A stretch of DNA of 64,000 nucleotides from Escherichia coli (lineage in GTDB: Bacteria; Pseudomonadota; Gammaproteobacteria; Enterobacterales; Enterobacteriaceae), in assembly GCF_051903065.1 (NCBI RefSeq), contig NZ_CP178438.1; one strand, written 5' to 3'. Both the position numbers and the translations under genes were made by a program. The notes beneath the pieces were generated by a model that saw only the letters and a program-made list of their open reading frames with translations, was not told the DNA's origin and searched no databases. Below, in pieces: positions 33,275 through 34,566 of the stretch (positions are counted from its first letter, which is position 1; each line of letters starts with the position of its first letter).

Positions 33275-33750
33275 CTTAGATGTCCGGTATTAAGTAAGTT
33301 GCACACACAATAATTTCGTCTTCAATTAAGATCTGCTTAACTAAAGAACGCTCGCTATTATTCAGATAATTCAAAATGAGCGTGGCTGTGATGATAGGAA
33401 TTATGTTTTTTACGTGAATGAGAATAATCTTAAATGAGGAATAACTCATTGATTGACAATATTTTTATTCAAGAAGTGTCATTGACTGTTAACGCAATGT
33501 TGTAAAGGTAAGATAATCTGATTTATCAATATTATTGTGTGATTTTTATGTGAGCAGAAGATATTCATCAGCAACGATTACATTAGTCATTTTATTTTGC
33601 CGACGGCCTCATTGTCGAAAGATAAGCGTACGACAGTATTATCTGAAAAGAGTGATTTTTTATTCAACTACATTTCAGCGCACTGCGTTTAAAAAATGCC
33701 TCTTTCTTATGCGGGATATCATCATTTCATCATGATGTCTTTGGTGAGCG

Positions 33751-34194
33751 GTGAACACAATACACCTGCGCTGTCTCTTCAGGATGAATCCCCTGGTCTG
33801 GTGCCTGCGGGCTGATGTTGCAGCCGAGCTAAGGTCACTTAGACGCTACTATCATTTATCCAATGGCATGGAATCGAAATCAGTCGATACCCGCAGTATA
33901 TATCGTGAACTGGGTGCAACGCTGAGTTACAACATGCGTCTGGGGAACGGTATGGAAGTTGAGCCGTGGCTGAAGGCGGCTGTGCGCAAAGAATTTGTCG
34001 ATGATAACCGGGTGAAAGTGAATAATGACGGTAATTTCGTCAATGATTTGTCGGGCAGACGTGGAATATACCAGGCAGGTATTAAAGCCTCATTCAGCAG
34101 TACGTTAAGCGGGCATCTCGGGGTGGGGTATAGCAACGGTGCCGATGTGGAATCCCCGTGGAACGCGGTGGCTGGTGTGAACTGGTCGTTCTGA
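33751..34194 (+). pseudogene. ycgI: Orphan autotransporter beta-domain fragment
   Basis: Frame encodes only the last ~100 aa of an autotransporter barrel (ends ...AVAGVNWSF, terminal aromatic) with no signal peptide or passenger upstream; paralogous to the ycgH C-terminus. Confidence 0.7.
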
Positions 34195-34514
34195 CCATCA
34201 ACGATTAAACTGCGCTTCGGCGCAGTTTTCGTTTACAGGGGGGCTAAAAGGGAAAATTCTGGGGCAAAAAAAGCCCGCCAGTTACGGCGGGAAACCTCAT
34301 CCTATGGGAGAACAATGAATAATGAAATTGCGGGGTTATCATCTCCCAGTATATCCATGCTAACAATAAGGTTATTTACTCAACCAGGCATAAACATTTT
34401 GTTTTGTGCGTGGGAACAGCCTTAAGGTGTAAAGGGGGAGGTGGAAATAGCAATGAGGAGTATCAGCAAGAATACTCGCCGCTTTACCACAACGTGGATG
34501 AGAGGGATGAAAAA

Positions 34515-34545
34515 CTCAAGGCAGAGATAACTCTGCCTTGAAGAT
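34515..34545 (-). terminator. minE rho-independent terminator
   Basis: Hairpin aaggcagag / ctctgcctt just beyond the minE stop, followed by a T-run on the minus strand. Confidence 0.6.
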
Positions 34546-34566
34546 AAATGCGCTTTTACAGCGGGA

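Follow-up and report, generated by a model that had tools for sequence, protein, structure and literature searches.

The DNA around the pseudogene ycgI, at positions 33275-34566 of a 64,000-nt stretch of the Escherichia coli chromosome (contig NZ_CP178438.1; the whole stretch is hereafter called the window), was read, at a probability of roughly 0.75, as three adjoining parts: a control region whose open reading frames (ORFs) are probably non-coding (block 1, 33275-33750), the remnant ycgI, and a transcription termination zone that also holds a small RNA (sRNA) gene (block 2, 34195-34566). The only new-looking element of the region is the last of these, a likely Hfq-dependent sRNA encoded on the minus strand between ycgI and minE, which has been flagged in high-throughput tables without follow-up. 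The bulk of the finding is housekeeping: the small genes ymgI and ymgJ were placed, ycgI was explained as the remnant of a deletion, and hairpins were assigned to experimentally mapped terminators.

The segment 33200-34640 matches strain 23CRST027 at 100% identity and the majority of complete E. coli genomes at ∼98%, and K-12 MG1655 aligns at 99% across ymgI–minE (K-12 1222984-1224294). K-12 carries two 1-nt deletions relative to the window; its coordinates are obtained by adding 1189714 up to window position 33958, 1189713 up to 34237, and 1189712 beyond. An earlier sequence-only reading had described both blocks as unannotated, which is correct for block 2 and mistaken for block 1, where ymgI and ymgJ are annotated; block 2 lacks annotation in K-12 and under all listed matches of a search that matched 5420 of 5426 complete E. 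coli genomes. The coordinates of all features are collected in Table 1.

A conserved, Hfq-associated island in block 2

In a 747-nt comparison with Escherichia albertii, the longest exact run was the core of an island within block 2, identical at 57 of 57 positions (34275-34331), with adjacent coding DNA 81% identical and flanking spacers 34-52% identical; the immediately adjoining 34230-34265 reached only 34%. Among 20 distinct E. coli haplotypes, variable columns made up 7.5% of the island (34266-34345) and 5.3% of its core, as compared with 27.8% of 34346-34514 and 30.6% of 34230-34265. On the minus strand the island reads ...AAUUUCAUUAUUCAUUGUUCUCCCAUAGGAUGAGGUUU-CCCGCCGUAACUGGCGGG-CUUUUUUU, a single-stranded region followed by a strong intrinsic terminator whose tail is the only 7-U tract on either strand of the annotation-free gap; in E. 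albertii, a 5-bp stem is followed by 8 U. The hairpin of this terminator (GCCCGCC-AGTTAC-GGCGGG, 34273-34291) had already been picked out by the sequence-only reading, as GCCCGCC..GGCGGG, but the conserved minus-strand RNA that ends there had gone unnoticed. The island is single copy and, in the genomes sampled, was found only in two species, E. coli and E. albertii. Some 20-40 nt upstream of it, inside otherwise hypervariable DNA, lies a second short conserved block (34365-34383, minus strand, TGAGTAAATAACCTTAT) that shows almost no variation in E. coli and matches E. albertii at ∼17/19 positions; this block could serve the candidate RNA as a promoter or as a site for a regulator.

The same island appears in published Hfq data obtained by RIL-seq, in which interacting RNAs are ligated and sequenced. 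Bar et al. (2021), using the Hfq RIL-seq data of Melamed (2016), listed it in Supplementary Table 1 as "minE.ycgI.IGR", with 12 chimeric fragments and a score of 0.028 in exponential phase. A second sheet, whose allR and fadA values agree with the stationary column in Table 2 of that paper and which was therefore assigned to stationary phase, gives 137 chimeric fragments, 5 unique partners, an SIC of 0.8, a U-tract of 7, and an sRNA score of 0.276, where a score >0.1 defines a candidate and RybB and Spot 42 score 0.29 and 0.23, respectively, in the same sheet; from the five partners and the SIC of 0.8 it follows that minE.ycgI.IGR was second in every chimera. A 2025 RIL-seq preprint places minE.ycgI.IGR as RNA2 at K-12 1223978-1223980 on the minus strand, equivalent to window 34266-34268, the last Us of the tail, and reports a chimera with the 5′ untranslated region (UTR) of tktA (7 fragments, odds ratio 40, p = 0.0016) in addition to 412 other chimeric fragments in that library. 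The RNA was neither discussed nor subjected to a northern test in Bar et al. (2021) and has no name in K-12, and no main-text mention of "minE.ycgI" was found in the literature searched.

The island thus combines a Rho-independent terminator with a U-tract and a conserved seed region, and the published tables add Hfq association and second position in chimeras, all properties by which Hfq-dependent sRNAs are recognized; we consider it reasonably likely that the island is a discrete Hfq-dependent sRNA, primary or processed. A more detailed proposal is tentative and, in our judgment, falls somewhat short of an even chance, namely that the island is an Escherichia-restricted regulatory sRNA of ∼75 nt that starts near 34341-34352 from a stationary-phase promoter of its own, carries CAUUGUUCUCCC as an anti-Shine-Dalgarno/anti-AUG seed, and has been kept under strong constraint. 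In the preferred reading, the sRNA gene lies on the minus strand between terminators, spans ∼75-80 nt, and ends at the stem-loop 34291..34274. Its product would be a discrete transcript, with TATACT at 34353..34348 as a possible -10 element and perhaps with higher abundance in stationary phase; through the conserved CAUUGUUCUCCCAUAGGAUGAGG region, a seed of the anti-Shine-Dalgarno/anti-start-codon type, it may pair with target mRNAs at their translation-initiation regions.

Several observations weigh against a discrete, expressed sRNA at this site. Only two sampled species carry the island, and there is thus no covariation evidence; the island alone is not unusually structured (z = -0.5 vs. 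shuffles), and the 5′ hairpin predicted for E. coli (GGGAGA/UCUCCC) is not kept in E. albertii. T1, A2, and T6 of the predicted TATACT element are kept in all E. coli haplotypes except that of strain L009; the element has no -35 partner, is altered in L009, and reads CATTCT in E. albertii. Term-seq in LB and M63 lists no 3′ end at the island terminator, DirectRNA-seq of untreated exponential cells has just 18 reads across the 800 nt downstream of 34352, minE.ycgI.IGR does not appear in nitrogen-starvation RIL-seq tables, and the duplex predicted for the tktA 5′ UTR does not outperform shuffles (p = 0.44). Separately, a promoter scan returned no sigma-70 promoter for the candidate RNA, and an Rfam 15 covariance-model scan of 32000-36000 gave no match at E ≤ 1, with best scores of 13-18 bits in a narrow Rfam scan against gathering scores of 40-70. 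A scan of the 79 translation-initiation regions in the window had a best z of about -3 (LolE-like), as expected by chance, and the pairing with pliG in that scan (-22.7 kcal/mol, z = -2.2) was likewise at chance level.

The conservation of the island could also, in principle, reflect a function of the plus strand, either a toxin-like small ORF with a cis-antisense RNA, similar to type I toxin-antitoxin systems, or a DNA-level site for protein binding or recombination. A ribosome-binding site (RBS) and ATG (GGGAGAACAATG, 34307-34317) lie inside the conserved core as the reverse complement of CAUUGUUCUCCC, so that the minus-strand RNA exactly faces a strong RBS and start codon on the plus strand; E. 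albertii conserves the first 7 codons (MNNEIAG) of the ensuing ORF, and the island sits inside a segment that Escherichia species either carry or lack as a whole. The ORF, given as 26 codons in the sequence-only reading, actually has 36 (34315-34425), and its body does not behave as a gene: indels occur in 5 of 8 strains, unique substitutions are 1 synonymous and 6 non-synonymous, and the C-terminal half is hypervariable, with frameshifts and variable stops; the peptide has no clean hydrophobic helix. The ribosome-profiling small-ORF table searched has no entry at 34315-34425. Neither is there a promoter-like conserved block on the plus strand, where 34230-34265 is so poorly conserved; the indel boundaries fall at ∼33551 and at the minE stop codon instead of at the island; and the island is single copy, with its published RIL-seq reads on the minus strand. 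A plus-strand function is therefore very improbable, and the best explanation for the apparent start of the 36-aa ORF is that it mirrors a region of the anti-Shine-Dalgarno type in the minus-strand RNA. A type I toxin-antitoxin assignment was rejected because the ORF is not conserved and hence offers no conserved small hydrophobic toxin.

Transcription termination between ycgI and minE

The hairpins of block 2 exceed chance, given that the minus strand of the 372-nt gap folds with a z of -4.7 relative to shuffles (0 of 100 shuffles were as good); a terminator scan returned 6 sites, with 2.8 ± 1.7 expected. These hairpins are functional transcription terminators, not elements tied to small ORFs. 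Besides the island hairpin and AAACTGCGC-TTCG-GCGCAGTTT, which lies at 34207-34229 and which the sequence-only reading had rightly located near 34205-34230, there is a third that it had overlooked, directly after the minE stop codon (34515-34542). This last hairpin is the intrinsic terminator of minCDE: it has the stem-loop and the U-tract, and a mapped 3′ end at K-12 1224224/1224225 on the minus strand, equivalent to window 34512/34513 in the U-tract, is given by three matching Term-seq entries (Adams et al., 2021, supplementary file 1) whose tabulated sequence is exactly that of the minE hairpin. In E. albertii, its stem is kept by a compensatory G-C to A-T double change.

Farther along the minus strand, a Rho-termination region was mapped at K-12 1224064, or window ∼34352 (Rho score 24.9, p = 3.6e-67; Adams et al., 2021, supplementary file 2), with 230 reads upstream and 18 downstream in untreated cells, compared with 293 and 571, respectively, in the presence of bicyclomycin. 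The minus-strand RNA between the minE terminator and this region has a C/G ratio of 1.65 and includes a stretch (34472..34393) that, by its composition, which is as expected for Rho loading, is a putative rut site; it is hypervariable among strains. On the plus strand, the hairpin at 34207-34229 is preceded by an A-run and followed by a T-run, which gives it a bidirectional look, and is 91% identical in E. albertii, with spacers of 28-34% identity on either side. From its sequence and conservation it is probably the own terminator of the autotransporter gene of which ycgI is a remnant; no experimental 3′ end was found for it. In this model, minCDE transcripts stop at the intrinsic terminator after minE, as the published Term-seq data show, read-through RNA is terminated by Rho near 34352, as shown by the published bicyclomycin data, beyond the putative rut site of the C-rich stretch, and the plus-strand autotransporter gene would end at its own hairpin, which would make block 2 a zone of convergent termination.

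In this setting, the island might be nothing other than a back-up terminator, or the distal 3′ end of read-through minCDE mRNA, with incidental binding of Hfq to its U-tail, no sRNA of its own, and no regulatory function. It does lie downstream of minE on the same strand, many 3′ ends at intrinsic terminators are bound by Hfq, and no transcription start site is known for the island RNA, for which exponential-phase expression is low and promoter prediction weak. However, perfect conservation reaches ∼40 nt upstream of the hairpin, a stretch that terminator function alone does not need, and in the comparison of E. coli with E. albertii the proven minE terminator reaches only 64% identity. An efficient intrinsic terminator and the Rho region also stand between minE and the island, and the presence of the island RNA as the second member in all chimera fragments, with 5 partners, is the sRNA signature of Bar et al. 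(2021). This alternative is accordingly unlikely, though clearly less so than a plus-strand function, and a processed sRNA derived from the 3′ UTR would still count as an sRNA; a discrete Hfq-dependent sRNA is the preferred reading.

Two further reports touch the termination zone. A filamentation screen of strain UTI89 found enrichment from minCDE through the "conserved gene C1358" in the spacer to the ycgI homolog, and its authors could not distinguish linkage to minC from a real effect. In a GapR-seq preprint, a signal of positive supercoiling is noted here from the end of the minCDE transcript.

Small ORFs of block 1, the ycgI remnant, and the history of the segment

The sequence-only reading had mentioned ymgI and ymgJ as small proteins annotated nearby in K-12; alignment bears this out, with coordinates, lengths, and sequences matching the K-12 annotation, and the 66-aa ORF that it listed at 33535-33735 exists, with a TTG start, as ymgJ with a slightly longer start. 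The broader suggestion that these small ORFs are conserved small-protein genes was not supported, as substitution patterns and disruptions speak against conservation, a ground on which that reading had said it would fall. The comparison covered three sister Escherichia genomes and, within E. coli, 8 other haplotypes; unique substitutions were counted in each ORF, and the synonymous fraction expected at random differs between ORFs (0.21-0.27 overall, 0.21-0.24 for the four small ones). The controls ymgG (44 synonymous, 6 non-synonymous) and minE (8 synonymous, 0 non-synonymous) showed no disruptions and are under clear purifying selection. Substitutions in ymgI, in contrast, were 12 synonymous and 33 non-synonymous, and each of the three sister genomes (E. 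sp. E1V33, E. whittamii, and the SCPM genome) has a stop at codon 3, although the start and frame of ymgG are intact there. In ymgJ, with 4 synonymous and 13 non-synonymous substitutions, the frame is shifted in one strain (L009), as also flagged by the Prokaryotic Genome Annotation Pipeline (PGAP), and the gene is absent outside E. coli in the genomes sampled, its region missing from L014, L015, and L017. The 39-aa ORF had 2 synonymous and 10 non-synonymous substitutions and has lost its start codon in one strain (L010).

No Shine-Dalgarno sequence was found for ymgI, ymgJ, or the 39-aa ORF, Pfam and NCBIfam scans of all the small ORFs returned no match, and the ribosome-profiling small-ORF table of Stringer has no entry at their coordinates. 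The intergenic part of block 1 has a GC content of 26-32% and no enrichment of promoter-like hexamers (7 vs. 5.0 ± 2.7 in shuffles), and homology to cryptic-clade Escherichia genomes extends to ∼33551. A 2025 iModulon study of K-12 hypothetical proteins assigned neither a regulator nor a co-expression partner to ymgI or ymgJ.

Could the small ORFs, including the 36-aa ORF of block 2, nonetheless encode real small proteins, with the hairpins as their terminators or attenuators? Both K-12 and PGAP annotate ymgI and ymgJ, and a precomputed Pfam table lists new families for them (PF28591 for YmgI and PF28592 for YmgJ), a listing that weighs against a non-coding reading, as does the fact that neutral evolution is compatible with a young, lineage-specific YmgI or YmgJ protein. 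The ymgI stop codon abuts the TTG start of ymgG in a manner that resembles translational coupling, the 36-aa ORF is preceded by a strong GGGAGA Shine-Dalgarno sequence, and the UTI89 annotation has gene C1358 between the ycgI homolog and minE. Against these points stand the neutral substitutions, frameshifts, start loss, and premature stops, set against the purifying selection on ymgG and minE, as well as the missing Shine-Dalgarno sequences, the retention of the ymgG start in species with a broken ymgI, and the empty ribosome-profiling and iModulon records. Real small proteins are therefore improbable, and ymgI, ymgJ, and the 39-aa ORF are most likely chance ORFs in AT-rich leader and promoter DNA, at most very young lineage-specific genes. 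ymgI occupies the leader/promoter region directly upstream of ymgG and is probably not a conserved protein gene; ymgJ is found 5′ of the former autotransporter gene, in its upstream region. PF28591 and PF28592 may thus rest on neutrally evolving sequences found only in E. coli. It follows that ymgI and ymgJ, still listed as uncharacterized K-12 proteins and recently given Pfam families, may be annotation artifacts, and effort spent on annotating them as hypothetical proteins may be misplaced because both evolve like non-coding leader DNA.

In strain 144 and an O55:H7 strain, the space from ymgJ to minE holds an intact YpjA/EhaD-like autotransporter gene. In strain 144, the gene spans 5983-9345 of the extracted locus (L003; 3363 bp, ∼1120 aa), window 33600-33850 aligns to 5696-5946 of that locus, and window 33850-34000 aligns to 9001-9151; this clean break at 33849/33850 means that 3054 bp have been lost, including the start codon at 5983. 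What remains matches TIGR01414 (E = 2.5e-23, residues 34-147 against profile positions 319-432 of 432) and PF03797 (E = 1.6e-11), and PGAP labels ycgI as "missing N-terminus". Of the elements that define a type Va autotransporter, the C-terminal 12-strand beta-barrel translocator domain is partly present as its last strands, and a signal peptide and passenger in one intact ORF were not found in the window, having been removed by the deletion. ycgI is thus the beta-barrel tail left by a 3054-bp deletion of a YpjA/EhaD-like autotransporter, and the 147-aa ORF at 33751-34194 is a chance fusion of the remnant with upstream DNA. That ORF is uninterrupted in this strain because the 1-nt deletion that K-12 carries near 33959 is not present.

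The locus is structurally variable. On the other side of ymgD, ycgH (30550-32535) is a 661-aa ORF that PGAP calls an autotransporter missing its N-terminus, with an intact, 2664-bp counterpart in strain 144; two independent autotransporter remnants therefore flank ymgD-ymgJ. In two O157:H7-type loci (L004 and L026), a region with ompT, a helix-turn-helix gene, and IS66 replaces ymgD-ymgJ and part of the autotransporter, and in strain CDE6306 an IS3 element is inserted in the autotransporter remnant; the spacer that bears the island is kept in all of these despite the rearrangements. Transcription antisense to ycgI has also left a trace: "ycgI.AS" (∼33983-33996 on the minus strand, K-12 1223696-1223709) forms 43 chimeras with ArcZ in a 2025 RIL-seq table (odds ratio 502, p = 4.6e-64), implying minus-strand transcription through ycgI toward ymgJ, ymgI, and ymgG. 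The CCCUGG seed of ArcZ matches CCAGGG in ycgI.AS, but the predicted duplex reached a p of only 0.09 relative to shuffles.

Species-representative genomes were scanned for the MinE C-terminus to follow the segment among relatives. In E. sp. E1V33, E. whittamii, and a divergent "E. coli" genome (L014, L015, and L017), ymgG, ymgI, and the 100-nt spacer lie only ∼180 nt from minE; the sequence equivalent to ∼33551-34566, with ymgJ, the autotransporter, and block 2, is missing, and ∼180 nt of unrelated sequence stand in its place. The missing segment includes the minE terminator used in E. coli, and its left boundary (∼33551) coincides with the ymgJ start codon, its right boundary with the minE stop codon. 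E. albertii carries both the end of the autotransporter and block 2, an E. coli-type minE terminator region is present in E. sp. MOD1-EC7003 on a contig that ends after 237 nt, and two Citrobacter genomes have no homology downstream of minE. A look-up of contigs with an exact MinE match returned only E. coli contexts and no further species, and a plasmid database search with the island returned only E. coli chromosome-like records. The behavior of the autotransporter, ymgJ, and block 2 is therefore that of a single insertion/deletion unit, and this shared presence and absence, in the genomes sampled, suggests that the island belongs to the 3′ flank of the autotransporter cassette. If the island does encode an sRNA, it has remained under strong constraint despite the decay of the autotransporter to a pseudogene in most E. 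coli.

Table 1. Features between ycgH and minE, in window coordinates; entries on promoters, rut-like composition, and the sRNA are predictions or candidates.
Feature	Position	Strand	Remarks
ycgH pseudogene	before ymgD		first in annotated order
ymgD	32591-32926	minus	annotated
ymgG	32930-33274	minus	annotated; TTG start; YmgG glycine zipper (Pfam/NCBIfam match)
ymgI (b4593)	33276-33449	minus	57 aa; annotated in K-12 and RefSeq/PGAP
AT-rich divergent intergenic region	33450-33549		between ymgI-ymgG-ymgD (minus) and ymgJ/autotransporter (plus)
ymgJ (b4594)	33550-33735	plus	61 aa; GTG start; annotated in K-12 and RefSeq/PGAP
39-aa hypothetical ORF	33696-33815	plus	PGAP call; overlaps ymgJ 3′ end
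Deletion junction	33849/33850		3054 bp of autotransporter gene lost
ycgI pseudogene remnant	33850-34194	plus	last 345 nt of autotransporter
Annotation-free gap	34195-34566		372 nt, between ycgI end and minE
Terminator-like hairpin of autotransporter	34207-34229	plus	AAACTGCGC-TTCG-GCGCAGTTT, then TTTT
Candidate sRNA island (minE.ycgI.IGR)	34266-34345	minus	∼80 nt; 3′ end 34266-34268
Island conserved core	34275-34331	minus	57 nt
Island terminator	stem-loop 34291..34274, C(U)7 tail 34273..34266	minus	CCCGCC-GUAACU-GGCGGG; scored as terminator
36-aa ATG ORF	34315-34425	plus	rejected as gene
Possible -10 element TATACT	34353..34348	minus	predicted only
C-rich, G-poor (rut-like) stretch	34393-34472	minus	C 27 / G 8 over 80 nt; upstream of Rho region
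minE (minCDE) intrinsic terminator	34542..34515	minus	12-bp stem, then UUUUU; 25-55 nt after minE stop
minE	34567-34833	minus	followed by minD, minC

Comparison with known systems

Each part of the region has a counterpart among described systems. ycgI shares the C-terminal beta-barrel of the type Va YpjA/EhaD adhesins, of which it keeps only the last 115 residues; unlike the intact adhesins, it has had its promoter, signal peptide, and passenger domain deleted. YmgI and YmgJ differ from validated small proteins: purifying selection and a Shine-Dalgarno sequence are both missing, and neither is conserved outside E. coli.

Intrinsic or bidirectional terminators in convergent regions, with Rho as a back-up, are reportedly a concept from Term-seq and SEnd-seq studies, such as that of Ju and colleagues from 2019. 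Block 2 resembles such convergent-terminator systems in its GC-rich hairpins with U/A tracts, in the 3′ end within the U-tract, and in the Rho region beyond it in C-rich untranslated RNA. It departs from them in having three hairpins in 372 nt, more than one gene pair needs, and in that the middle hairpin belongs to a separately conserved unit.

Next to the doubtful status of ymgI and ymgJ, that unit is the second point that gives the region interest beyond housekeeping: even in K-12, a strongly conserved Hfq-bound RNA beside the min operon remains unnamed, which makes it a well-defined candidate for the catalog of sRNAs and, should it prove to be one, an example of an sRNA outliving its neighboring accessory gene. 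The candidate RNA resembles the trans-acting Hfq-dependent sRNAs known from RIL-seq, whether intergenic or derived from 3′ UTRs (for example CpxQ, SdhX, AllZ, and FadZ), in its terminator with a 7-U tail, in being Hfq-bound and second in chimeras, and also in its several partners, its higher stationary signal, and the conserved single-stranded region upstream of the terminator. AllZ and FadZ were themselves candidates in Bar et al. (2021), and the candidate RNA stands in the same table with a score above the authors' threshold. It differs from such sRNAs in being unnamed, unannotated, and outside any Rfam family, and in being limited, among the genomes sampled, to the Escherichia lineages that keep the autotransporter flank.

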